From a virus: a DNA stretch of 39,064 bases. The notes under the pieces are model-generated. The model was given only the letters and a program-made list of their open reading frames with translations, searched no databases and was not told where the DNA came from. The translations under genes were made by a program, and so were the position numbers. Below, piece after piece: positions 8,997 through 39,064 of the stretch. The DNA is taken from the IMG/VR virus record IMGVR_UViG_3300029951_000066; one strand, written 5' to 3'. Each line of letters opens with the position of its first letter. Positions within the stretch are counted from its first letter, which is position 1.

Positions 8997-9488
8997 ATGA
9001 CTATCGTCATTGGTATCGACCCTGGCATAACCGGTGCTCTCGCCACTCTCGACGGTGAAAGCGTCTACGTCGATGACCTGCCGATCCGCCTCAAGCGAGA
9101 TGTGAGCAAGGTCAAGAACGAGATCGACCCCGTCGCTTTGAAGGCGCTTCTGCTGAAACGCTTGCCAGCTGATCGCAGCGCCATATGCGTCATGGAGGTG
9201 CTAAACACCTTCGCTGGCGGTTCGGTGCAGACGATGGCATCACTGGCGGCTACGAAGGCTGTCATCAGCACAGTGCTCGAACTGTGCGGTGTAGACACGC
9301 TATTCGTCTCGCCCCAGGCATGGCAGAAATGGTATGGCATCCGCAAGAGCGAAATCAGCGATACCAAAGATCAGAGTCTTGCCCATGCGCGAAAGCTGTT
9401 CGGCTCTGCATTCTGTCCGCTCAAGAAGCATCATGGGCGTTCTGACGCTCTGTTGATCGCTAGGTATGCGCAGAGGCATTTCGTATGA
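8997..9488 (+). CDS. RuvC-like Holliday junction resolvase
   Basis: N-terminal IVIGIDPGITGALA motif typical of RuvC-fold resolvases; GGAG RBS. Confidence 0.7.
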   Translation: MTIVIGIDPGITGALATLDGESVYVDDLPIRLKRDVSKVKNEIDPVALKALLLKRLPADRSAICVMEVLNTFAGGSVQTMASLAATKAVISTVLELCGVDTLFVSPQAWQKWYGIRKSEISDTKDQSLAHARKLFGSAFCPLKKHHGRSDALLIARYAQRHFV

Positions 9489-9543
9489 GCAGCCTCGCGC
9501 CGATCAGTTATGCCGTGGCTCAACATTCGTTGGAGATTTTGTG

Positions 9544-9747
9544 ATGACGCCAGAACGATTGAGGGAGAAGCGCACGCAGCATGTAGCGCGTGAGCTTCTG
9601 CGTATGCAGATGGCTGTCGTGGAGCAGAACGCGGTGATGCACTCAGCGATGCTTAAAGAGCAAGAAAATTACATGATCGCCGTTGAAACTGCGTCTCGGG
9701 AGTTCAATGCGATTTGTTTGGCGCTTTCGTTTACGAGATTCGTTTAA
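9544..9747 (+). CDS. Hypothetical protein (about 68 aa)
   Basis: ORF from internal ATG of the 9466 track ORF. Confidence 0.4.
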   Translation: MTPERLREKRTQHVARELLRMQMAVVEQNAVMHSAMLKEQENYMIAVETASREFNAICLALSFTRFV

Positions 9748-9749
9748 CC

Positions 9750-9986
9750 ATGCAGTCCCTCGCACGCCTCTCAGCAATCCTCTGCCGCGACCCTGTGTTT
9801 CGACAATGGCTCGTGCACGACACCGATTTCAATCCGGGGGATGCGGCAGAGGCTGCCGAGGTCGTGCGCGTCGTATGCGGCATAGACAGCCGCCGCGAGC
9901 TGGACACGAATCCGACCGCTGCTGAGCGGTTTCACGAGCATTTGCGCAAGCCGTTCATCGAATGGAGAGATCATCATGAAGGATAG
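9750..9986 (+). CDS. Hypothetical protein (about 78 aa)
   Basis: ORF from ATG at 9750, immediately after the upstream stop. Confidence 0.4.
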   Translation: MQSLARLSAILCRDPVFRQWLVHDTDFNPGDAAEAAEVVRVVCGIDSRRELDTNPTAAERFHEHLRKPFIEWRDHHEG

Positions 9987-10338
9987 TCATCGCAACCTAT
10001 GCCTGGCGGTCGAGGCGAATCCAGGGGCCACGTTCGATGAATTGGCCGAGGTGATGTGCCAGAAGCCGGACGCGATCCGCAAGAAGGCGCTACTACTTAT
10101 CGAGCTGGGCATGCTGCGTGGTGATCGCAAAGGTCGAGCGCAGAAAACTCGTCTATTCCGCACTAGCGAGCCCCTTGGCGACGCTGCCGAGTTCAGGATA
10201 AGCGCCTACACGGCCAAGCGATACGCAGAGGCACAGGCGCGGCTAGCGCCGCCTCCTGTGCCGGATTTAGCGCATCTCATGCCCGAATTCGTTCGGCAGT
10301 CGCTACGATTCACATCAACCCTGGAGCAATCATGCTGA
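9976..10338 (+). CDS. Hypothetical protein with a possible winged-helix DNA-binding domain
   Basis: 120-aa ORF; FDELAEVMCQKPDAIRKKALLLIELGML resembles wHTH. Confidence 0.5.
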   Translation: MKDSHRNLCLAVEANPGATFDELAEVMCQKPDAIRKKALLLIELGMLRGDRKGRAQKTRLFRTSEPLGDAAEFRISAYTAKRYAEAQARLAPPPVPDLAHLMPEFVRQSLRFTSTLEQSC

Positions 10339-10445
10339 AATTCTGCCTTTGCACGCTGTTTGTCGCCTTTTTGGTCGGACTGTTCGTCCATCCGGTGGCT
10401 GCATCGCTCGTTTTCGCGGGTGCTTGGCTAGTCCACACCCGATAA
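10332..10445 (+). CDS. Possible small hydrophobic peptide (37 aa)
   Basis: Manual translation MLKFCLCTLFVAFLVGLFVHPVAASLVFAGAWLVHTR; GGAG RBS; overlaps the upstream stop. Confidence 0.3.
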   Translation: MLKFCLCTLFVAFLVGLFVHPVAASLVFAGAWLVHTR

Positions 10446-10447
10446 TC

Positions 10448-10476
10448 TTGCCAAATCATCAAGATTGAGGTATGAA
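10448..10476 (+). promoter_or_regulatory. Putative sigma70-type promoter (TTGCCA-17 nt-TATGAA) upstream of a small ORF and the HNH gene
   Basis: -35/-10 hexamers with 17-nt spacer; the spacer contains a 6-bp inverted repeat (atcttg/caagat). Confidence 0.35.
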
Positions 10477-10505
10477 TACCGCCATCAACATTTCGGAGAG
10501 TCGCC

Positions 10506-10661
10506 ATGCCAGCAGCTAAACAGGGCGAGAAGCTTTCCGACTTCCTCTCGCGGTTTGTGTCATCGAAACGTGAGGATCGCAAGTACTCGAACGTCAAGCA
10601 GCGCCTTGCTTTGGGCTACTCGGAAGCCAGAGAGCAGGCCAAGAAAGGAGTTAGGTCATGA
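10506..10661 (+). CDS. Possible small protein (51 aa)
   Basis: Manual translation with GGAGAG RBS; stop overlaps the HNH start (ATGA). Confidence 0.35.
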   Translation: MPAAKQGEKLSDFLSRFVSSKREDRKYSNVKQRLALGYSEAREQAKKGVRS

Positions 10662-11152
10662 GACGAATTGCGATCGCTAGGTTACATTTTTTGTTGCGCC
10701 TCGATGAAGCGACCGGGTTCCTGTGCTGGCGAGGGGCTAGCTTAGGGCATCACGCCGACGATCGCGCCGGAAGCCTGAAGAGCGATGGGTATCGCCGGGT
10801 CTACATCGATGGTTCGCGCATCTATGAGCACCGAATCACGTTCGCGATGACAAATGGTCGTTGGCCAGATTTGCACGTTGACCATGCCAACGGAGTACGT
10901 GATGACAATCGTCCCTGCAATCTTCGCGAGGCAACAAGGTCCCAAAACAATGCAAATAGTAAGATTTCTTTGCGTAACACCAGTGGGCTCAAGGGTGTCG
11001 GGTTCCACAAGCAAATAGGTAGATTCAGGGCCGACATACGGATTGAGGGGAGCCTCAAGTACCTCGGCCTATTCGATAGCGCAGAAGAGGCGCATGCCGC
11101 CTATATGCGAGCAGCGCAGCAATTCCATGGCCAATTCGCGAGGGCAGCATGA
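10658..11152 (+). CDS. HNH homing endonuclease with AP2-type DNA-binding domain
   Basis: Motifs HVDHANGVRDDNRPCNLREATRSQN (HNH) and SGLKGVGFHK...YLGLFDSAEEAHAAY (AP2-like); AAAGGAG RBS. Confidence 0.8.
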   Translation: MRRIAIARLHFLLRLDEATGFLCWRGASLGHHADDRAGSLKSDGYRRVYIDGSRIYEHRITFAMTNGRWPDLHVDHANGVRDDNRPCNLREATRSQNNANSKISLRNTSGLKGVGFHKQIGRFRADIRIEGSLKYLGLFDSAEEAHAAYMRAAQQFHGQFARAA

Positions 11153-11300
11153 GCAAAATCTCACAGAAACCGAGTCAACCCAAATCGCAGCCTAGGCTTC
11201 CCACTGGGCACTTCGACCGGAATGGCACCAGCCAAGGCCAGCAGAGCGGCGCAGTACGCAAGTCGCCAGACGCCTACAACGATCGCAAGGAGCAAAAATA

Positions 11301-11765
11301 ATGCCCCGTGACGTCAAAGGAAAGGCCAAGGGCGACGAGACCATGAGCGCGGTCAACATGACCGACATGCGCCGCACCAACGCTGCGAAGAAGGAAGGCG
11401 CGACCAATGCCATGACCAACTCTGACGGCCCCGAGTATCCGTACGGCCTAAAGGTGCATCTCGACCACGACAGCATGAAGAAGATGGGCATGAACGATAT
11501 GCCCGAGGTCGGTAGCGAGGTCACGATGCATTCGAAGGCGCATGTCGTCGGCGCTCGTGCAGAGAAGCGCGAGGGCGGCGATGAAGAGCGCCATGTCGAG
11601 TTGCAGATTACGCACCTTGGCGTTCATCACAAGCCGGATGGCATGACCAAGCAAGCGCAGGCTGGCAGTGGTAAGACGCCGGATGCTGGCAAGGTGACCG
11701 AGAAGAAGGGCGCTAAGCCGGGTTATACGAAGCCTGAGCCGGCATACGGCAGGAAGCGCCACTGA
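11301..11765 (+). CDS. Hypothetical protein (154 aa)
   Basis: ORF with AAGGAG RBS. Confidence 0.55.
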   Translation: MPRDVKGKAKGDETMSAVNMTDMRRTNAAKKEGATNAMTNSDGPEYPYGLKVHLDHDSMKKMGMNDMPEVGSEVTMHSKAHVVGARAEKREGGDEERHVELQITHLGVHHKPDGMTKQAQAGSGKTPDAGKVTEKKGAKPGYTKPEPAYGRKRH

Positions 11766-11941
11766 TGCCTAACCAGCTTATCACCATGGAAGAAATGGCC
11801 GCGGACTTCGATCGGATCTGCCTGGAGAACGGTGTAACGCCGCAGGAGTTCTTCGGGGCTTTGCGCCATGCTGCTGCGACTGAATACGATGCGGATGAGG
11901 ATGCCAGAGTAAGGAAGATTTATGGGTTGGAGGCTTATTGA
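11765..11941 (+). CDS. Hypothetical small protein (58 aa)
   Basis: Manual translation; TGATG overlap with the upstream gene. Confidence 0.4.
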   Translation: MPNQLITMEEMAADFDRICLENGVTPQEFFGALRHAAATEYDADEDARVRKIYGLEAY

Positions 11942-12116
11942 CATGATGCACCTACCTTCGATTGTGAGTCCGCCGCAGCGCAAGTCACACATCTTTTGCG
12001 AGGCTGGGAAGTGGGTGCTGCGCACATTCGGACCTGCTATGGCATGGGATATGCCGTTTGAGTCGGTTACGGATATTCAGCGGTATCACAAGCGCTACAT
12101 ACGGAGATTTCGCTGA
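11922..12116 (+). CDS. Hypothetical small protein (64 aa)
   Basis: ORF with AAGGAAG RBS. Confidence 0.45.
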   Translation: MGWRLIDMMHLPSIVSPPQRKSHIFCEAGKWVLRTFGPAMAWDMPFESVTDIQRYHKRYIRRFR

Positions 12117-12394
12117 TGACTATCGATTATGAGCGTGGAACTGGGCGCACGACAGAGCAAATGAAGGCTGCGCCGCGCGGTGCCGTATATGTTTCTCCGC
12201 ATCCTTTCGCCACCGACTATGTCCGCAAGCTCGCTGCGAAGATTTTGCGGGAAGACCTAAGGATCGTAGAGCCTTCGTGGCTAGACCATGGATGGCACGG
12301 CAAGATTTTGGAGGGCATCGTCGTGGACCATGCATGCCATCTGGATGACCATCATCGACAACTTCTTTTGAATGCCGAAACAAGGATTCGATAA
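12116..12394 (+). CDS. Hypothetical protein (92 aa)
   Basis: ORF with TGATG overlap and GGAGA RBS. Confidence 0.45.
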   Translation: MTIDYERGTGRTTEQMKAAPRGAVYVSPHPFATDYVRKLAAKILREDLRIVEPSWLDHGWHGKILEGIVVDHACHLDDHHRQLLLNAETRIR

Positions 12395-12828
12395 TGGGCG
12401 TCAACCTCAAGACCAATGGCGCTGGCGGGGAGTTGTCTTACGAGACGAAGACCTACGTTGCGCCCGACGAGAAGATCCAGCCGCTTCACGACTACATCGT
12501 GGTCGAGCCGCTGCCGATAGAGCATTCGAAGATTCTGCTTGTTGTCGAAGAGATCAAGCCGGTTCGCGGGATCGTGAAGGCTGTTGGGCCTGGCCACTTT
12601 CCATTGCGATATGACCACCCGGACAAGCACCGTCGCACGAAGATGTGGCGCAGCAAGACATTTTTGCCAACCCAGGTGAAGGTGGGCGATATCGTTGAGC
12701 TCGGCTCGGTGCAGTTGGAAGGCCGGTATGTTGGCTACAGCTTTCAGCAAATTTATTGGGGAAACACGATGCATATCATGTGCCGTGAAGCCGATGTGAG
12801 CGGGATAGTCGAACAGGAGGCAGCATGA
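12394..12828 (+). CDS. GroES-like co-chaperonin (Cpn10 family)
   Basis: Motifs PLHDYIVVEP, GIVKAVGPG, VKVGDIVEL and C-terminal ADVSGIVEQ parallel E. coli GroES (PLHDRVIV, GEVLAVGNG, VKVGDIVIF, SDILAIVEA). Confidence 0.65.
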   Translation: MGVNLKTNGAGGELSYETKTYVAPDEKIQPLHDYIVVEPLPIEHSKILLVVEEIKPVRGIVKAVGPGHFPLRYDHPDKHRRTKMWRSKTFLPTQVKVGDIVELGSVQLEGRYVGYSFQQIYWGNTMHIMCREADVSGIVEQEAA

Positions 12829-13076
12829 ATACGCTCGACAAGATTTGGATCGATGAAACATCGGACTTCGTTGCTTCCAAGGAAAAACTGATCAAGATGA
12901 CAGGAAAAGCACTTCACAAGCTGCGCAAACGTGCGCACATCGCCGCAGCAATCGCTGCTCAAAGCGCCTGGATCGAAGACGCGCTGTATATCAACACAGA
13001 AGATCGCCGTATGCGTGACAAGCTGTTCTGCTATGCACGCGAAATCCAAGCGCGAAAGCAGAATGAAGCGCGCTAA
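12825..13076 (+). CDS. Hypothetical protein (83 aa)
   Basis: ORF in track, coupled to the upstream gene. Confidence 0.45.
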   Translation: MNTLDKIWIDETSDFVASKEKLIKMTGKALHKLRKRAHIAAAIAAQSAWIEDALYINTEDRRMRDKLFCYAREIQARKQNEAR

Positions 13077-13377
13077 CGTCAAGCGTGGTGCGCTGCCAGT
13101 CGAGGCCGTCGATGACGTGCCTACCGAAACCAGCGAGCAGGCGCTAATCGATGACTCCGGCGACGAACTGCGCTACGTCAGCATCCCGTCCGACTGGCGC
13201 AAAGGCAACCTACTCAACGTGCGCAACTACGGGCCGGAATATGTCGTCACGCTCTATCCCGAGGAGCTAGACCACGATAAACCCGAGCGCGCGCTTCACT
13301 TTCCGAATCACGGGCTGTGCCAGGCGTTCGTTTCCGGTTGGTATGCCCGCGAGAGTCATGACCCGAGGGCGAGATGA
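13063..13377 (+). CDS. Hypothetical protein (about 104 aa)
   Basis: ORF from internal ATG of the 12931 track ORF. Confidence 0.4.
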   Translation: MKRANVKRGALPVEAVDDVPTETSEQALIDDSGDELRYVSIPSDWRKGNLLNVRNYGPEYVVTLYPEELDHDKPERALHFPNHGLCQAFVSGWYARESHDPRAR

Positions 13378-13586
13378 TGGCAATCATCAGCGAAGCGTTT
13401 CGCATGTTAATACTGAAAGAGTCGGTAGGTGCTCTCGACCGAGAATATGCTGTATTTCGGGATGCCATTCCACGCCGCCATTCCACTGCGGGATTTATAG
13501 CAAAGCACAGCTACGATATCGCGCAGGATTCGGTTCGTACCTGCATCTCATGCGGCTCCAAAACTCAACCCTGTTGCGGGCACTGA
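13374..13586 (+). CDS. Hypothetical protein (70 aa)
   Basis: ORF with ATGA overlap. Confidence 0.4.
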   Translation: MMAIISEAFRMLILKESVGALDREYAVFRDAIPRRHSTAGFIAKHSYDIAQDSVRTCISCGSKTQPCCGH

Positions 13587-13587
13587 G

Positions 13588-13800
13588 ATGGCAACGATCA
13601 ATAGAGACGGCACGATCAATTTCGGCAACTCGAAGGGGTTGCTCTCGATAAGTGAGATCAATCGGAAGGCGATGGAATTCTTCGTGAAGATGCAGGAAAG
13701 CCAGGACATCTGGGACCGTCAAGAGCGCATCAGTGAGTTGCGCAAATCGTGCGGCGCTGAACCGCAGTACACGAAGATCAAGATCGGCTCAGGAGCGTAA
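13588..13800 (+). CDS. Hypothetical protein (70 aa)
   Basis: ORF in track. Confidence 0.45.
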   Translation: MATINRDGTINFGNSKGLLSISEINRKAMEFFVKMQESQDIWDRQERISELRKSCGAEPQYTKIKIGSGA

Positions 13801-13802
13801 CG

Positions 13803-14201
13803 ATGGCCGGTAAGAAAGGACAAGCGCCGCGTACTGAGTTCTCTCAGAAGCTGTTCGATGAGATATGCGAGCTTATTGCAGACGGCAAGAGCTTGCGCGA
13901 GACGTGCGAACTGAAGGGCATGCCCGACCGGGCGACGTTTAATAAATGGCGCAAGCGTGCGCCAGAACTGCAAGCTCAGTACGATCAGGCCTACAAGGAT
14001 TACGAAGATTCTTGCCTGCAAGATATCGTCTATATCGCGGATACGGAAAAGGACTCGGCGATCGCAAAGAACCGCATGGACGCTCGTAAGTGGGAGCTGA
14101 AGATACGCAACCGCAAGAAGTTTGGCGATAGCGTGCAGCATACCGGCGATCCGGAAGCACCGATGCAGCTCGTGCTCAATGGATCAGACGTACATGGCTG
14201 A
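13803..14201 (+). CDS. Terminase small subunit (HTH-type)
   Basis: N-terminus KKGQAPRTEFSQKLFDEICELIADGKSLRETCELKGMPDRATFNKWRKR matches the common small-terminase HTH family; AGGAG RBS; immediately upstream of the large subunit. Confidence 0.75.
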   Translation: MAGKKGQAPRTEFSQKLFDEICELIADGKSLRETCELKGMPDRATFNKWRKRAPELQAQYDQAYKDYEDSCLQDIVYIADTEKDSAIAKNRMDARKWELKIRNRKKFGDSVQHTGDPEAPMQLVLNGSDVHG

Positions 14202-15546
14202 GTTCAAGCTCACTACTAGGCAGGCCGAAGCCCAGGAGATGCTGAACGGGCCGGCGAAGCACGTGATGCTTGCGGGTGGTTCTAGGTCCGGAAAGACGCT
14301 GCTAATTATTAGGAAGCAGGTCCAACGTCGTCTTAAGGCGCCCGGCTCACGCGGCGCTGTGCTTCGTTTTCGCTTTGGTCACGTCAAGAACTCAATCATG
14401 CTGGACACCTTTCCTAAGGTGATGTCCATATGCTTTCCGGGCGTCCCATATGACGTGAATAAGTCGCTGGGCTATGCGACGTTTCCCGGTGGCAGTGAGC
14501 TGTGGTTCGGCGGCCTCGATGACAAGCAGCGCACTGAGAAGATTCTCGGCACAGAGTTTGCCGACATCTTTTTGAATGAGTGCTCTCAGATTCCATATTC
14601 GGGGCGTGAAATGGTCATGACGCGCTTGGCGCAGAAGGTACGCGACAATGCGACGGGCAACGATCTGATCATGAAGATGTATTACGACGAGAATCCGCCC
14701 GACAAAGGGCATTGGACCTATCGCCTGTTTAAGACCAAGGTGAGTCCCGAAACGCGTGCATCGTTGAGCGAGCCCGACAACTACGCCTTCATGCAGATCA
14801 ATCCTCGCGACAACCAAGAGAATCTGTCCGCCGACTACCTGAAGACGCTGTCCGAAATGTCGCCACGGATGCGCAAGCGCTTCCTCGAAGGAGAGTTCCG
14901 CGATGCCTCGCCTAATGCACTTTTCTCCGAAGAAGTGTTTGAACGTTGGCGCAACATTGATGACGAACTGCCGGACATGTTGCGTATCGTCGTGGCAGTC
15001 GATCCGTCAGGCGCCGATGATGATGACAACGTCGACAATGACGAAATCGGAATTGTCGTGGCTGGTCTCGGAATTGATGGGAATGGGTATGTATTGGAGG
15101 ATCTGACGTGCAAGGCTGGTCCTGCTGTGTGGGGCAAGGTTGCGACGGATGCCTATAAGCGTTGGGGCGGCGATCGCATCGTCGGTGAGGTGAATTATGG
15201 CGGCGCGATGGTCAAGTTCGTGGTACGCACGGCGCTGCCGAATGTACCGTTCAGGCCGGTCACCGCGACGCGTGGCAAGGTCATCCGAGCCGAGCCGATA
15301 TCAGCCCTGGTAGACGCTGGAAAGGTCCGCTTAGCTGGCGTGTTCCAAGAGATGGAAGACGAGTTATGCGCAATGACCACGCATGGCTATACCGGCGAGA
15401 ACAGCCCGAACCGTGCCGATGCGATGATATGGGCTATGACCGATCTATTCCCCGAGCTGGCCAAGCCGGAAGCAATTAAACCAGAGCCAAAGCCGCAGTT
15501 CATTCATCGGCGCCTTGGGTCAAACACAGGCTGGATGAGATCATGA
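14194..15546 (+). CDS. Terminase large subunit
   Basis: Walker A GGSRSGKT near the N-terminus; about 450 aa; between small terminase and portal. Confidence 0.85.
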   Translation: MAEFKLTTRQAEAQEMLNGPAKHVMLAGGSRSGKTLLIIRKQVQRRLKAPGSRGAVLRFRFGHVKNSIMLDTFPKVMSICFPGVPYDVNKSLGYATFPGGSELWFGGLDDKQRTEKILGTEFADIFLNECSQIPYSGREMVMTRLAQKVRDNATGNDLIMKMYYDENPPDKGHWTYRLFKTKVSPETRASLSEPDNYAFMQINPRDNQENLSADYLKTLSEMSPRMRKRFLEGEFRDASPNALFSEEVFERWRNIDDELPDMLRIVVAVDPSGADDDDNVDNDEIGIVVAGLGIDGNGYVLEDLTCKAGPAVWGKVATDAYKRWGGDRIVGEVNYGGAMVKFVVRTALPNVPFRPVTATRGKVIRAEPISALVDAGKVRLAGVFQEMEDELCAMTTHGYTGENSPNRADAMIWAMTDLFPELAKPEAIKPEPKPQFIHRRLGSNTGWMRS

Positions 15547-17723
15547 CCGACCAAGTAACACACGGCGCCAACGAGCCAACCCAGCGCACCGAAGAGGATC
15601 GCGAGTTTGCTGCGATCTCTGACGAAGAAATATGGCTCGAAGCAAAAGACCGCCTGCAGATCGCGGCTGAAGCTTATTCCGATAACCGCAAACGCGCTAA
15701 GGCTGCGATGCTGTTCCGTGACGGCGATCAGTGGGACCACGATACGGGCACGAGCGCTTCCGAGGATTCGCCTGAGCTGACCATCAACCTCACCGATGCA
15801 TTCGTGCGCCGCGTGGTGAACAACATCAAGCAGCAGCGTCCGCGCGGCAAGTGCCATCCGGTAGGCGATGGCGCCGATGTCGAGCTCGCCGAAATCATCA
15901 ACGGCATCGGTCGGCATGTTGAAACGCGTTCCGAAGCGTCGATCGCCTACGATCTGGCCGCCGAGCGTGCTGTAGATGCAGGCGAGGGCTACTTCCGGCT
16001 AGTCGCTGAGTATGTCGACCCGCGCTCGTTCCAGAAGGATCTACGCATCCTGCCGATCCGCAATATTTTCAGTGTGCACATGGACCCGAGCGCCATGATG
16101 CCTAGCGGCGCTGACCAGAACTGGTGCTTGATATCAGTCAAGATGAAGCGGCAGGAGTACCGCCGTCGCTACCCGAACGCGAAGAATGTGCAGTGGAACG
16201 ATATCGACCGCCAGCAGAGCCGCATCGACTGGGAAGACAAAGAGGAAATCCGGCTCGCCGAGTATTTCCGCATCCGTGAGAAGCCAGAGAAGCTCTATCA
16301 GATCGTCGACAAGACTGGCCAAGAGCATATGGTCTACCAGTCGGAGTTGAAGCGGATAACAGGCTCAGTGGCCTCGCTGAAAGATGCTGTCGATAGCTTA
16401 ACGCAGGCAGGCATTCGAATTGTCAACGAGCGTGACTCGGTAAAGCGCCAGGTGGAATGGTTCAGGCTCAATGGCCTGGTCGTAGTCGAGCGCCAGGAGT
16501 TGCCCGGAAGCATGATTCCGGTGTTTCGTGTCGATGGCAACACGATGGATGTGGACGGTGCGATCCGACGCAAGGGCATGGTCGATTCGATGATGGACCC
16601 TCAGCGCATGGTCAACTATGGCGAAGTGGCTAAGATCAAGCGTCTAGGGCTCGCGCCTAAAGCGCCGTGGGTCGCAGCAGAAGGGCAGCTTGACGGCCAC
16701 CCTGAGTGGGATAATGCAAACCAAAAGTCATACTCGGTACTGACATACAAGCCGATCGTCATCGAGACCGGCAGTCTGCCGATCATGATCCCAGCGCCAG
16801 CACGTCAGCCACCGGCACAAATCGAGGCGGGTTTCAGCGAGTTCGTGCAGGGTATGAGGTCTAACTTGGTCGCTGTGGCTGGCATGCCGAACGAGCCCGG
16901 ACAGGATCAGCAGGGTGTCGTTGTATCTGGCCGCGCCATAGACCGTCGTCAGTGGCTCTCAGATCAGTCGCACTTCCAGTATTACGACAACCTGACGCAG
17001 GCCATCGCCCAGTGCTGGCGCGTTATGGTCGAATGGATTCCGACTTACTACTCAGAACCAGGTCGCATGCAGCGCGTGATCGGCGAGGACTCGACGCCGC
17101 AGATGGTCAAGGTCAACGACAAAGAGACCGACGATGGCGGTATCGAGCGCGTCAAGAATGACCTCTCTATCGGCAAGTACGATGTCGTGATGGACACCGG
17201 TCCAGGCTATGAGACGAAACGCGAAGAGGGTGCATCGAATCTGGTCGAGATGATCAAGATCCCGCCGCTAGCAGAGATTATCGCCAAGACTGCCCCGGAT
17301 TTGGTATTCCGTTCGATAGACCATCCGTACATGCAGGAGTTGGCCGACCGGCTGATGGCCTCGAATCCCGAGGGCTTGAAGAAGATCATGGAGGGCCTAT
17401 CGAGCCGCGCCAAGAGCATCGTTCAGGCGCAGGCCAACCAGATCACGACGCTCCAGCAGCAGCTCCAGGCGGTGACAACGGAGATCAAGCAGGGATTGCA
17501 GAAGGCGCATATGGCGGCTGTCGTCAAAGCGCACGACACCGAGACACGTGCCGCTACGTCGCTGCAAGTCGAAGAAATCCGCGCCGGCGGCAAGATCATC
17601 GACTCAAACGCCGACCGTGGCCACGATGCGCGGATGCTCGAAAAACAGCTTTTGCATGATGCATCACAATCTGCGGCCGACCGAGCCGTTCAACCTCAGC
17701 AGCCCACCGGAGAGCAGCAATGA
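15543..17723 (+). CDS. Portal protein (large, about 726 aa)
   Basis: Size and position directly after the large terminase, ATGA-coupled; function inferred from synteny. Confidence 0.7.
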   Translation: MTDQVTHGANEPTQRTEEDREFAAISDEEIWLEAKDRLQIAAEAYSDNRKRAKAAMLFRDGDQWDHDTGTSASEDSPELTINLTDAFVRRVVNNIKQQRPRGKCHPVGDGADVELAEIINGIGRHVETRSEASIAYDLAAERAVDAGEGYFRLVAEYVDPRSFQKDLRILPIRNIFSVHMDPSAMMPSGADQNWCLISVKMKRQEYRRRYPNAKNVQWNDIDRQQSRIDWEDKEEIRLAEYFRIREKPEKLYQIVDKTGQEHMVYQSELKRITGSVASLKDAVDSLTQAGIRIVNERDSVKRQVEWFRLNGLVVVERQELPGSMIPVFRVDGNTMDVDGAIRRKGMVDSMMDPQRMVNYGEVAKIKRLGLAPKAPWVAAEGQLDGHPEWDNANQKSYSVLTYKPIVIETGSLPIMIPAPARQPPAQIEAGFSEFVQGMRSNLVAVAGMPNEPGQDQQGVVVSGRAIDRRQWLSDQSHFQYYDNLTQAIAQCWRVMVEWIPTYYSEPGRMQRVIGEDSTPQMVKVNDKETDDGGIERVKNDLSIGKYDVVMDTGPGYETKREEGASNLVEMIKIPPLAEIIAKTAPDLVFRSIDHPYMQELADRLMASNPEGLKKIMEGLSSRAKSIVQAQANQITTLQQQLQAVTTEIKQGLQKAHMAAVVKAHDTETRAATSLQVEEIRAGGKIIDSNADRGHDARMLEKQLLHDASQSAADRAVQPQQPTGEQQ

Positions 17724-17983
17724 ACTTTACGCATACGGCAAAACCAGTAAAGGTACGAGCTATCGAGATAGTTAGCATTGACAATGAGGCGCACAACAAC
17801 GGTTCATACGACGTGGCTCTCCGAGATGGTACAAACTCGATAATCACCGAAGAAATGACGGCTCGTTACTTTCCGATCGAAGGTGACTATCTGGTAACTC
17901 AGGAGGATGGGTATGTCTATATCAATCCGAAAGAGGTTTTCGAGCGTAAATATTCGCCACTCTTCGTTGGAGAATGCAAATGA
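17720..17983 (+). CDS. Hypothetical protein (87 aa)
   Basis: ORF with ATGA overlap with the portal gene. Confidence 0.5.
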   Translation: MNFTHTAKPVKVRAIEIVSIDNEAHNNGSYDVALRDGTNSIITEEMTARYFPIEGDYLVTQEDGYVYINPKEVFERKYSPLFVGECK

Positions 17984-19014
17984 CCGTAACCGTACTCGAT
18001 AGTACCGATCTGACTGGAATCCTGGCCGATGCCGGAGTCGAGTTGGATCAGCCCCAAGGTGATCAGCAAGTGCAAGCGCAAAAGCCCGAGGGCAAGGATG
18101 CCAGCAAGCCGACCGGGCAGCAGCAGGATCAAGACCAAGACGACGACGAAGATGAAAAAGGTCTGAGTGCCGCCGATAAGGAGGTGCTCACGAAGCGCAT
18201 GCAAAGGGCCGTCGGCAAGCAGCATCGCAAGCGCATGGAAGCCGAAGAGTTCGCCGAGGCCGAGTACAATCAGCGCCATCTTGCAGAGCAGCGCGCCGAG
18301 AATCTTGAGAAACAATTGGCGGCGCTCAAGCAAGGGAGTACCCCGGAGACGGTGGAAAGCACTGCACCGGTACCCCCATTGCGCCAGAATTTCTCCAGCG
18401 AGAACGATTGGGTGGACGCAATGATTCAGTACGGCGTCGACAAACGCCTGGCTGAAAAGGCCGAAGAAGACCGTACTGCGGCGCAAAAGCGCGAGTATGA
18501 CGAGCGTATCGAGACCGCCAAAGGCCGCATTGTGAAGGCCATAGACCTGGTGCCAGACTTCGAAGAAACGATCATGGGCAACGACTCTACGCTGTCGCCA
18601 GCCATCGGTACTTACCTCGAAGAATCCGAGATGGTGGCCGAACTGACCTACTATCTGGCCAAGAACCCGGATGTATTAGTTTCGCTACTGAAATTGTCGC
18701 CACACACCCAATTAGTGAAAATCGGAAAAATTGAGAGTACACTCACGCCATTCGGTGGTAGCACTCAAACCGAGCACGACAGCAAGTCGAGCAAAGAAGC
18801 ATCCAACGGGAAGGTCGCCAAGACCGAGCCGAGCACCAATACAGGCATTGACCTGAGCAAGCCGCGCAGCAAGCCGGCCCCGGTGTTCGCGCCGTTAGAT
18901 GCAGGCGGTAACGCAGCAGCTTCGAAAGATTCGAAGGATATGAACATCCGGGAATCAATCGAGGACTTTGCCAAGCGCAACCGCGTCAATCTCGGTTCAC
19001 GTAAGCGGCATTAA
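17980..19014 (+). CDS. Putative scaffolding protein
   Basis: Acidic, Q/E/K-rich sequence with predicted coiled coil, between portal and capsid; GGAGA RBS. Confidence 0.6.
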   Translation: MTVTVLDSTDLTGILADAGVELDQPQGDQQVQAQKPEGKDASKPTGQQQDQDQDDDEDEKGLSAADKEVLTKRMQRAVGKQHRKRMEAEEFAEAEYNQRHLAEQRAENLEKQLAALKQGSTPETVESTAPVPPLRQNFSSENDWVDAMIQYGVDKRLAEKAEEDRTAAQKREYDERIETAKGRIVKAIDLVPDFEETIMGNDSTLSPAIGTYLEESEMVAELTYYLAKNPDVLVSLLKLSPHTQLVKIGKIESTLTPFGGSTQTEHDSKSSKEASNGKVAKTEPSTNTGIDLSKPRSKPAPVFAPLDAGGNAAASKDSKDMNIRESIEDFAKRNRVNLGSRKRH

Positions 19015-19088: not shown

Positions 19089-20474
19089 GTGTCAAATCAG
19101 CTACTCACGATCAGCCAGATCACCAACCGGGCACTCCCGGTTCTGGCAAACATGTGCGTTTTGACGGACAAATTCAACCGCCAGTACGACAAAGAATTCG
19201 GGCAAAAGGGCCGCAAGATCGGTGCGACGTGTAACGTCCGCCTGCCCCCGCGCTACCTCGGTACTTTCGGCCCTGCGCTCAATGTCGAGCCCAGCACGGA
19301 GAACTACGTACCGGTCAACATCCTGTATCAGTTCCACGTCGACATCCAGTTCAACACCATCAACATGCTGTTGGACATCGACGACTTCGAAGAGCGCTTC
19401 ATCCACCCGGCTTGCGTCGCAGTGGGTAACCGCATCGATTCGGACGGCGCCTACTTCGCTTTGCAGAACACCGCAAACCGTCAAGGCACGCCCGGTACGC
19501 CCCCCGGCAGCGGCCAGACCGCACAGGCGGCGCTCCAAGCATTCACCAACGCTCGCGCTATCCTCGTGTCGGAAGGCATGCCCAAGGGCTTGATCCCGAC
19601 CGCCGTGATGCACCCAATTGCCAATGCGTTCCTGACGCCGGCACTGTCGGGCCTCTTCAATCCGCAAGCGAACATCAGCGACTACTTCGAGACGGGCATG
19701 ATCGCCTTGAAGACCGCCGGCGCCGACTGGTTCGAAGATCCGAACATCGCCAACTATACGACTGGCACCTTGACTGGTACGCCGGTCTTGGCTGGCGTGA
19801 CTACGGCTTCTGCTGGTTCGGCGTTGCTCACTTCGGGCTGGGCGCAGACGGGTGTGTTGAACATCCAAGGCTTGACCAACACTGCAGCTCAGTGCACGGT
19901 CGGCGACACGATCCAGATCGCCGGTATCTTCCCGGTCAACCCGCAGAACCGCGGCAGCTACGGCACCACGCTCAAGCAGTTCGTGGTGCTTCCTCCGGGC
20001 GGCTACGCGCAACTCACTGGGTCGGCTGCGCCTGGCGGTCCCGGCTTCGCTCCTGCGACGCTCGCGGCTGGCACGTTCAACGCAACGACCGGCGTCTATA
20101 CGTCGAGCGGTACCGGCACGCTGTCGGTAACGATCGGCGAGTGCGTGATCACGGGCGGCCAGTTCCAGAACTGCCAAGCGCGTGCTGCATTCACTGGGAA
20201 CCCGGCTGTGACGATCAACGGCGGCGCAGCAGCGGCGACCTCCTCGACGGAAAATCTGTACTTCCATCGGGATGCCTTCGCACTGGCCTTCGTCGATTTG
20301 CCGCTGCCGCGCACCGCGGTCGAAGCAAGTCGAGCATTCGATGAAGATCTCGGTCTATCGATCCGGGTTGCAACGCAATATACGATCAATAACGACGCGG
20401 AACCGACACGTATGGATGTGGCATACGGATTTTCGAGCCTCTATCGTTCGCTGGCTTGCCGCGTGTCGGGCTAA
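19089..20474 (+). CDS. Major capsid protein (GTG start)
   Basis: 461-aa ORF after the scaffold; AGGAG RBS six nt upstream of the GTG; followed by a small gene and a terminator. Confidence 0.7.
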   Translation: MSNQLLTISQITNRALPVLANMCVLTDKFNRQYDKEFGQKGRKIGATCNVRLPPRYLGTFGPALNVEPSTENYVPVNILYQFHVDIQFNTINMLLDIDDFEERFIHPACVAVGNRIDSDGAYFALQNTANRQGTPGTPPGSGQTAQAALQAFTNARAILVSEGMPKGLIPTAVMHPIANAFLTPALSGLFNPQANISDYFETGMIALKTAGADWFEDPNIANYTTGTLTGTPVLAGVTTASAGSALLTSGWAQTGVLNIQGLTNTAAQCTVGDTIQIAGIFPVNPQNRGSYGTTLKQFVVLPPGGYAQLTGSAAPGGPGFAPATLAAGTFNATTGVYTSSGTGTLSVTIGECVITGGQFQNCQARAAFTGNPAVTINGGAAAATSSTENLYFHRDAFALAFVDLPLPRTAVEASRAFDEDLGLSIRVATQYTINNDAEPTRMDVAYGFSSLYRSLACRVSG

Positions 20475-36152: not shown

Positions 36153-36626
36153 ATGGGTGCCGTAACCTTCCAATTCGTCGAGGGGAGGGGCCTCAGCTCC
36201 TCTCTAATTGAATGGTTTGATCACGACCGTTACTCTCATGTCGATCTCGTCTTGCGAGACGGCACGTTGCTAGGCGCCCGCGACGATATGATTCTAGGCA
36301 TACCGGCAGGTGTGCAGATTCGCCCGTCCAGTTATGTGGACGGGGAATCAGTTCTCAGGGTGTCGGTGCCGTGCACAGACGAGCAGGAAGCGGCGTTCTA
36401 CGCCTATGCTCAAGAACAGGTGGGGAAGCCATATGACCAAGAAGCCATTGCCGCCTTTGTGGTGGGTCGGAATTGGCGCGATCCTAACGACTGGTACTGC
36501 TCTGAGCTGGGCGCTGCTTGCACTGAGAAAAGCGGGATTGTTCCGCCGTTGATTGCGCCTTGCAACAAGATAGCGCCTGGAGATTTGGCGCTGCTTTTGT
36601 CTGCTCTGGTTGAGATTCAGCCGTGA
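36153..36626 (+). CDS. Putative permuted papain-fold cysteine peptidase (YiiX/C92-like), possible second cell-wall hydrolase
   Basis: His-then-Cys order (YSHVDLVL ... WYCSELGAAC) reminiscent of the permuted NlpC/P60-like amidase family. Confidence 0.45.
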   Translation: MGAVTFQFVEGRGLSSSLIEWFDHDRYSHVDLVLRDGTLLGARDDMILGIPAGVQIRPSSYVDGESVLRVSVPCTDEQEAAFYAYAQEQVGKPYDQEAIAAFVVGRNWRDPNDWYCSELGAACTEKSGIVPPLIAPCNKIAPGDLALLLSALVEIQP

Positions 36627-38532: not shown

Positions 38533-39053
38533 GATTTATCTCCATGCGCAGCGGTCTTCATAAAGACGAGCCAGTGTGTGAGCCCTTTGCGGCCGCTTAG
38601 ATGGCCAAAGAGCGGCTTGACCTCAGCCAACGCCAAAACCTCACTCACCTTGATCTGCGTTTCATTCCACTTGAAGATCAAAACGCCATCCACGGAGAGC
38701 ACGCGAAAGCACTCTGCGAAGCCTCTGCGTAGGTCGTCGCGCCAGTCGGGACCGAGTTGGCCATACTTAGCTGCCAACCAACTCTTGGCTCCAGCACGCA
38801 CCAAATGCGGCGGATCGAACGAAACCAGTTTGAAAGCGCCGTCCGAATACGGCAAAGCACGGAAATCCAGCATCACGTCAGGCTCAATGCGGAGCGTGCG
38901 CGTGCCGCTGTCGTTACCATGCGAGCGGTCAGTAACGGTCAGCACCTCGTGACGCTGGTCGCCAAAGATCACGCTCGGGTGCTGGCGGTCAAGCCACATC
39001 ATTCGTCCACCGCAGCACGGGTCGAGAATTGTCTTTTCGGCTACGTCGCTCAC
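38529..39053 (-). CDS. Small SAM-dependent DNA methyltransferase-like protein (amino-methyltransferase motifs I and IV), orphan; GTG start lies in the terminal repeat
   Basis: Motif I-like ILDPCCGG and motif IV-like DPPH (DPPY variant); GGAG RBS; no adjacent restriction endonuclease gene. Confidence 0.55.
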   Translation of the reverse strand: MSDVAEKTILDPCCGGRMMWLDRQHPSVIFGDQRHEVLTVTDRSHGNDSGTRTLRIEPDVMLDFRALPYSDGAFKLVSFDPPHLVRAGAKSWLAAKYGQLGPDWRDDLRRGFAECFRVLSVDGVLIFKWNETQIKVSEVLALAEVKPLFGHLSGRKGLTHWLVFMKTAAHGDKS

Positions 39054-39064
39054 GCTCCGCTCCC
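38938..39064. repeat. Terminal redundancy, copy 2 (identical to 1-127)
   Basis: Exact 127-nt identity with the window start. Confidence 0.9.

Follow-up and report, generated by a model that had tools for sequence, protein, structure and literature searches.

A predicted GroES-like co-chaperonin with a short loop and an expanded basic roof accompanies the P22-type head genes of a temperate-type podovirus

Phage co-chaperonins are the classical case of a virus re-tooling the folding machine of its host. In phage T4, gp31 replaces GroES for the folding of the major capsid protein gp23 (PMC6318259, PMC9576892). Its mobile loop has 22 residues versus 16 in GroES, and it has no roof hairpin; the result is a cage 8% larger for the 56 kDa gp23 (PMC6318259). 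T4 gp31 (structures 1g31 and 2cgt) and CocO of phage RB49 are experimentally proven phage lids, encoded in genomes without a GroEL of their own, and their long-looped, roofless design is the only one that has been studied mechanistically.

[quoted passage not shown] The GroES clusters of virioplankton (Marine et al. 2017, ISME J, PMC5649160) come from phage genomes with GroES only, some of them predicted to be temperate, and the GroES-carrying pelagiphages HTVC023P and HTVC027P are small. Closer to the phage described here is Xanthomonas phage PBR31, where orf017, annotated as "co-chaperonin GroES" (QIN95328.1), lies 5' of a small open reading frame (ORF), TerL, and a P22-type portal, scaffold, and coat. 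The gene is absent from the text of the PBR31 paper (PMC10975493). Two uncultured podoviruses, MW202674 and MW202520, have a GroES gene at the same genomic position.

We analyzed a stretch of 39,064 nucleotides (IMG/VR record IMGVR_UViG_3300029951_000066), which we call the window. Its first 127 bases (1-127) recur exactly at 38938-39064; read as an assembler overlap, this repeat makes the window a complete genome of about 38.9 kb, circular or circularly permuted. The genome is that of a P22-like podovirus of temperate type, with a lambdoid layout: a leftward recombination block and an HTH repressor region, a rightward block for replication and resolvase, and a run of small genes on one strand that precedes the head block. 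A megablast search with 20 kb of the window against phage records gave no match. The ORFs scanned in the complete genome include no Cpn60/GroEL gene, so any chaperonin function must use the GroEL of the host.

The head block is on the plus strand and runs in the order small terminase, large terminase, portal, scaffold, coat. The small terminase is of the Sf6 type (13803-14201; PF20901, 88.7 bits). The large terminase (14194-15546; PHROG 979; Pfam Terminase_3/6C/6N) is given here with the ATG at 14194, which overlaps the end of the small terminase gene and follows the gene calls in identical contigs; a mechanical ORF list starts it at a TTG at 14122. The P22-type portal (15543-17723; PF16510, 433.6 bits) has a mass of 81.7 kDa, and the scaffolding protein (17974-19014) matches PHROG 8865 at E=3e-29. 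The P22-type coat (19089-20474; PF11651, 76.3 bits; PHROG 283) has a GTG start, 461 aa, a computed mass of 48.4 kDa, and a pI of 5.3. Genes for a head-closure protein, an SLT-domain protein, a tailspike-like protein, and an endolysin lie 3' of the coat.

The gene under study, at 12394-12828 on the plus strand, starts with ATG and encodes 144 aa (16.3 kDa, pI 6.6). A Shine-Dalgarno sequence, AAGGA, can be read directly at 12382-12386 on the same strand, with 7 nt separating it from the ATG. The reading frame shares bases with both neighbors: its start codon with the stop codon of the ORF before it (TAATG), and its own stop codon with the start codon of the ORF after it (ATGA). It thus belongs to a string of closely packed, translationally coupled genes that leads on to the packaging genes. 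A promoter and terminator scan over 9000-14300 gave no signal above shuffled expectation, so the transcription unit and late expression are deduced from gene packing only. The GC content of the gene is 0.556, and that of the genome is 0.560.

Judged by its sequence, the product is a true, divergent Cpn10/GroES homologue across the whole core. The first-pass annotation had proposed a phage-encoded GroES-like protein, and profile and structure comparisons agree with it. Pfam PF00166 (Cpn10) scores 22.8 bits against a gathering cut-off of 21.1, over the N-terminal half only; the NCBIfam GroES models align end to end with residues 27-140, with scores far under their cut-offs of 96-136 bits. An hhalign comparison over residues 24-143 gave 99.0% probability and E=4.7e-18 against a small canonical Cpn10 alignment, a similarity far beyond chance. 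In addition, a profile of 40 homologues matches E. coli GroES chains in the PDB (E=2e-4).

Structure prediction had been named as a check, with the lack of a barrel to count against the assignment; it returned a predicted Cpn10 beta-barrel. The AF2 single-chain model has a mean pLDDT of 75.6, with values of at least 90 at residues 61-100, and the top 29 Foldseek matches in the PDB are all Cpn10/GroES chains (target-normalised TM 0.65-0.86). In the BFVD viral structure library, all top matches that bear a name are annotated co-chaperonins; first among them is A0A6J5KIU6, "GroES chaperonin family [uncultured Caudovirales phage]" (41% identity, TM 0.69/0.74). Three other identities were discarded. 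Matches to the "GroES-like" domain of alcohol dehydrogenases begin only at Foldseek rank 37, with E of at least 0.09; a PHROG "head decoration" match (E=0.12) and a Pfam SHLD2_OB1 match (15.5 bits, under the cut-off of 26) are noise.

E. coli GroES (1aon) and M. tuberculosis Cpn10 (1p3h) share the predicted fold of the window's protein, with homology over the whole core. The features in common with bacterial GroES are I-x-P-L-x-D in the first strand, R-G-x-V-x-A-V-G-x-G, V-K-V-G-D, a C-terminal D-I/V-x-x-I-V-E, and a hydrophobic pair at the positions of I25 and L27. The hallmark motifs quoted in the first-pass annotation are all present, as P30-L-H-D..I35-V-V, G59-I-V-K-A-V-G-P-G67, V95-K-V-G-D-I-V101, and I138-V-E140. 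Identity to bacterial GroES is about 25%, and the sizes differ (144 aa versus 97 aa). The window's protein adds an N-terminal extension, a longer and basic roof, and an extra 9-residue hairpin, whereas its loop is shorter and without the flanking glycines.

The N-terminal extension (aa 1-27; 12394-12474, plus strand) is absent from cellular GroES. It had been put at 25 residues, and this length is real, since I28 aligns with GroES I3. The extension is conserved across the 40 homologues, where L14 never varies and E13 and T20 reach 90% or more; because it is conserved as protein, it is translated.

The mobile-loop equivalent (aa 39-58; 12508-12567, plus strand), placed by alignments, is glycine-free and has the lowest pLDDT of the core. 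This region had been described as longer than in GroES. It has 4 residues fewer than its counterpart in E. coli GroES, and the extra length of the protein belongs to the roof (+15) and the later hairpin (+9). Two 2-residue deletions take out the pairs on either side of the hydrophobic tripeptide, Gly-Gly ahead of it and Gly-Ser behind it. What is retained is the motif S45-x-x-[IL]48-x-[VIA]50, in which the GroES glycine is replaced by S-x, and L48 and V50 are the equivalents of GroES I25 and L27. Among 81 family representatives, S45 is kept in 72, position 48 is I, L, or V in 80, and position 50 is V, A, I, or L in 75; the middle tripeptide position is often charged or polar, and 46 representatives have no glycine in the loop. 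The segment has the alternating pattern of a beta-strand, not that of a floppy loop.

The roof hairpin (aa ~68-94, HFPLRYDHPDKHRRTKMWRSKTFLPTQ; 12595-12675, plus strand) is expanded by a 15-residue insertion in the hhalign alignment. It is the most conserved part of the family and is confidently modelled as a hairpin (pLDDT 90-93). Its net charge is +5, plus 3 histidines, versus -1 for the roof of E. coli GroES. A second, variable hairpin insertion (aa 105-114; 12706-12735, plus strand) adds 9 residues; close relatives have it too, and in the others it is 6-9 residues shorter. The C-terminal strand, CREADVSGIVE (12781-12813, plus strand), aligns with the C-terminus of GroES as the equivalent of "SESDILAIVE"; C130, R131, E132, and D134 are invariant among homologues. 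The first strand (IQPLHDYIVVEP) and this last strand are both conserved, and in GroES they form the inter-subunit interface of the heptamer.

The protein falls outside the gp31 family. In the Foldseek search, gp31 (1g31_A) has the same general fold but ranks 33rd, with weak structural similarity (TM 0.35/0.46) and 13% identity, and its remodelling is the opposite one: gp31 is long-looped and roofless, and the window's protein has a short loop and an enlarged roof. Client size differs as well, with 56 kDa for gp23 and 48 kDa for the window's coat. The first-pass annotation had invoked gp31 as a model. The shorter loop and the larger, basic roof limit the analogy to the general sense that the phage supplies its own lid; the window's genome shares with those of T4 and RB49 the lack of a GroEL gene and may share the link to major capsid protein folding.

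The nearer relatives differ in other ways. PBR31 orf017 (107 aa) has a loop of canonical length with "SAGILV" and a normal roof. The MW202674 protein (94 aa) has a short glycine-free loop and lacks both the N-terminal extension and the roof expansion. The virioplankton and pelagiphage genes have head genes downstream, as in the window; their hosts are marine, whereas the window's family is from soil and peat, with Burkholderiales-type hosts, and the roof change in virioplankton GroES is a deletion (PMC5649160), whereas here it is an expansion. We found no description in the literature of a protein that combines an N-terminal arm with a trimmed loop free of glycine and a roof both expanded and basic, or of strict co-inheritance of such a Cpn10 with one P22-type head clade.

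A word-indexed search recovered 256 clusters at 90% identity, and the family has 73 loci in IMG/VR. The clusters come mostly from soil and peat metagenomes, with some in Burkholderia and Paraburkholderia genomes. Several are already labelled "co-chaperonin GroES" (JGI) or "co-chaperone GroES family protein" (NCBI); the latter is the label of a protein of Paraburkholderia sp. HD33-4 (P0077), with 65% identity. This protein and A0A6J5KIU6 belong to the same family as the window's and carry automatic annotation only. The first-pass annotation considered a co-chaperonin uncommon in a small genome of this type. That view finds no support in these numbers, in the annotated genes of PBR31 and the two podoviruses, or in the reported abundance of GroES-only viral contigs (PMC5649160). 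Phage co-chaperonins are well established and the family already bears a GroES label at NCBI, JGI, and UniProt; the find is a modest one.

The family is a narrow, well-separated clade, as its profile has few matches among 1.84 billion representatives (115 at E<=1e-3, 73 at E<=1e-10) and proteins of GroES length (~90-110 aa) score E=1e-9 or weaker. The long-form relatives have the N-terminal extension. Short forms of 93 aa have the short glycine-free loop without the extension and without the roof expansion, which argues that the short loop is the older trait and that extension and roof are later additions. Species-representative genomes yielded 8 loci only; most belong to Pseudomonadota, and 2 are on acidobacterial MAG contigs with uncertain binning. 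A tblastn search with the protein against 50,697 phage records found none at E<=0.01, and the link to isolate phages was made solely by way of the coat protein and of one relative of the short form. The representative search also returned a single tandem protein, P0129 (231 aa), in which a divergent short-loop Cpn10 is followed by one with a canonical loop ("SGAGIHLAS"); it resembles a Cpn20-type double co-chaperonin.

The gene had been placed immediately upstream of the packaging and head module. The adjacency is looser than that, with four small ORFs (12825-13800) and about 1 kb before the small terminase gene at 13803; the linkage itself is strong. In all related contigs, the Cpn10 gene is on the same strand as the head module and 5' of it. 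Among loci found via the Cpn10 gene, a set of related phages with some near-duplicate contigs, 59 of 59 with enough sequence have a P22-type portal downstream, and 36 of 39 have a coat homologue there. A TerL homologue lies in between in 35 of 74 loci and a TerS homologue in 24 of 79, and the genes upstream in the window are kept in 3 of 57 or fewer.

The linkage also holds in reverse. Starting from the coat alone (63-100% identity) and taking IMG/VR loci that extend at least 9 kb upstream, a Cpn10-like ORF was found in 26 of 26, on the same strand and 5.3-8.4 kb upstream of the coat. One contig, L136, was considered as a phage of the coat clade without Cpn10 and set aside: it stops about 480 nt upstream of the partner ORF described below, and the expected position of the gene is off the contig. 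The large terminase ORF of L136 (1797-4070) is unusual in its own right, at 758 aa compared with the usual ~450; from "...GGSRCLTGDAVIDGH", its extra sequence looks like an intein at the Walker A region.

The Cpn10 gene is thus inherited with the portal-scaffold-coat block, and terminase and early genes are exchanged; the synteny could partly reflect common descent in one phage lineage. In the isolate collection, an annotated GroES gene stands at the same position in each of the 3 records whose coats are closest; coat identity to the window's is 45.5% for PBR31 and 39% and 42% for the two uncultured podoviruses (MW202674, MW202520). The head region lacks a GroES gene in three phages whose P22-type coats are more distant (28-35% identity). 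The canonical loop of the PBR31 protein points to a genuine GroES-type gene as the ancestral state here, from which the window's protein would derive.

Two small neighbors deserve attention. A partner ORF of 104 aa (13063-13377, plus strand) follows the Cpn10 gene in 44 of 80 loci. It belongs to a 22-member family with an invariant W45...WYxRE, and its C-terminal 60-residue domain is highly conserved (P42, W45 ... WYARESHDPRAR). It has no Pfam match, and its AF2 model (pLDDT 70.5) finds nothing in the PDB better than E=0.29. One database protein, P0124 (203 aa), fuses a Cpn10 of this family to the partner domain; the fusion may be an assembly artefact. The second neighbor, a basic protein of 154 aa (11301-11765, plus strand), is a homologue of epsilon15 gp10 (PF21628, 48.6 bits; PDB 3j40_N, E=5e-9), a component of the epsilon15 capsid and its small "staple" or cement protein. 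It is encoded away from the head block, and in 17 of 72 relatives the Cpn10 gene comes directly after it; it is a possible second client or partner.

What does the protein do? We favor the reading that it is a phage-specific lid on host GroEL in head morphogenesis, and we consider this probable, though by no means assured. The Cpn10-like protein would be made along with the late packaging and head genes, from the same translationally coupled string, and would assemble into a heptamer that caps host GroEL, docking by way of the conserved L48 and V50 of its shortened loop. The lid would assist the folding or assembly of a head protein, for which the 48 kDa, acidic P22-type coat is the most plausible candidate and the portal less likely; the coat, at 48.4 kDa, is small enough for encapsulation, and the portal, at 81.7 kDa, is too large. 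With its basic roof extension (about +5 per subunit, about +35 per ring) and its shorter loop, the lid would have a ceiling unlike the acidic one of the host in shape and in charge.

The lid reading is supported by the hydrophobic character of loop positions 48 (80/81) and 50 (75/81), and by the canonical loop of the positional homologue in PBR31. The homology and predicted fold, the lack of GroEL in the genome, the linkage to the head block, and the precedent of gp31 also speak for it. It is weakened by the loss of the glycines that flank the GroEL-binding tripeptide, by a loop that is 4 residues shorter and strand-like in pattern, and by a middle position that is often charged. Classical groES loss-of-function alleles map to the same glycines. 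Wild-type P22 coat is not known to require GroE. A 48 kDa coat would be accommodated by the standard GroEL/GroES cage, so it is not evident why a special lid should be needed; the coat, as the likely client, is under the size that calls for an enlarged cage. Capsid folding may depend on the gene, as the first-pass annotation proposed.

The state of the loop bears on a different account, which we judge unlikely: a ring of Cpn10 fold that makes no use of GroEL and serves as a free-standing head assembly or packaging factor, acting on portal, scaffold, or terminase via its basic roof and N-terminal arm, possibly with the 104-aa partner. A loop that is short, glycine-free, and strand-like would suit such a ring, but the two hydrophobic positions that contact GroEL are almost invariant, and the loop of the syntenic PBR31 homologue is canonical throughout. 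The basic 15-residue hairpin is both the biggest and the best-conserved novelty of the family, and the gene lies just ahead of the terminase genes, as would fit a factor of this kind; however, we found no precedent in the literature for such a phage Cpn10. The conserved partner gene and its one fusion (P0124) also speak for this account, with the reservation that a single fusion may be artefactual.

Should the protein bind GroEL at all, it would by design compete with host GroES, and this opens a further account in which it diverts or blocks GroEL to halt host folding or a GroEL-dependent defense, with no particular phage client. We hold such a takeover or counter-defense function to be quite improbable. 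Early and takeover genes are mosaic in these phages, whereas the Cpn10 gene is co-inherited with portal, scaffold, and coat, and it lies in a same-strand, translationally coupled string that leads into the packaging genes. Phages do acquire host chaperonin genes (PMC5649160), but the idea of a host groES captured not long ago and carried along as a passenger (moron), without any role specific to the phage, is nearly excluded by a family profile that reaches cellular-type GroES only marginally (E=1e-9 or weaker at GroES length), by strongly conserved family-specific insertions, by the presence of the gene in 26 of 26 relatives selected by coat, and by a GC content equal to that of the genome.

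Returning to the lid on GroEL, its architecture invites a more specific proposal, one we regard as speculative and rather doubtful in its full form. The lid would be the opposite of gp31: a short, stiff loop and seven 15-residue basic roofs (about +35 per ring, plus histidines) would lower the ceiling and make it positive, giving a chamber tuned to the acidic coat and possibly to the epsilon15-gp10-like protein, with the N-terminal arm and the 104-aa partner as accessory parts. If true, this would be a second, independent structural solution for the customising of the host chaperonin by a phage. The family alters both functional elements of GroES in the other direction from gp31 and is universally kept with one P22-type head clade. 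If GroEL is bound, the protein would show the tuning of cage geometry and charge for a capsid client; if it is not, the Cpn10 ring would have been put to a novel use. Cultivable handles on these questions are the prophage of Paraburkholderia sp. HD33-4 (JAJEJS010000002.1, about 1.399 Mb) and, in Xanthomonas phage PBR31, the syntenic gene with a canonical loop. At present, the gene has a reasonable annotation and an interesting architecture, and it is no surprise.

Three observations concern other parts of the genome. An HNH endonuclease with an AP2-like DNA-binding domain (10658-11152, plus strand; PHROG 99, E=2e-58) lies about 2.6 kb 5' of the terminase genes; it is seen in near-identical contigs only and is therefore probably a mobile, homing-type insertion. 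A 638-aa ORF at 113-2029 on the minus strand has no Pfam match; its last ~110 residues match about 10 PHROG families of unknown function, with E down to 1e-37, and this part is a widespread phage C-terminal domain. Directly after the lysis region, a 157-aa ORF (36153-36623, plus strand) matches PHROG 1128, "enoyl-CoA hydratase/carnithine racemase-like" (E=5.5e-17), and falls into the moron/auxiliary class.
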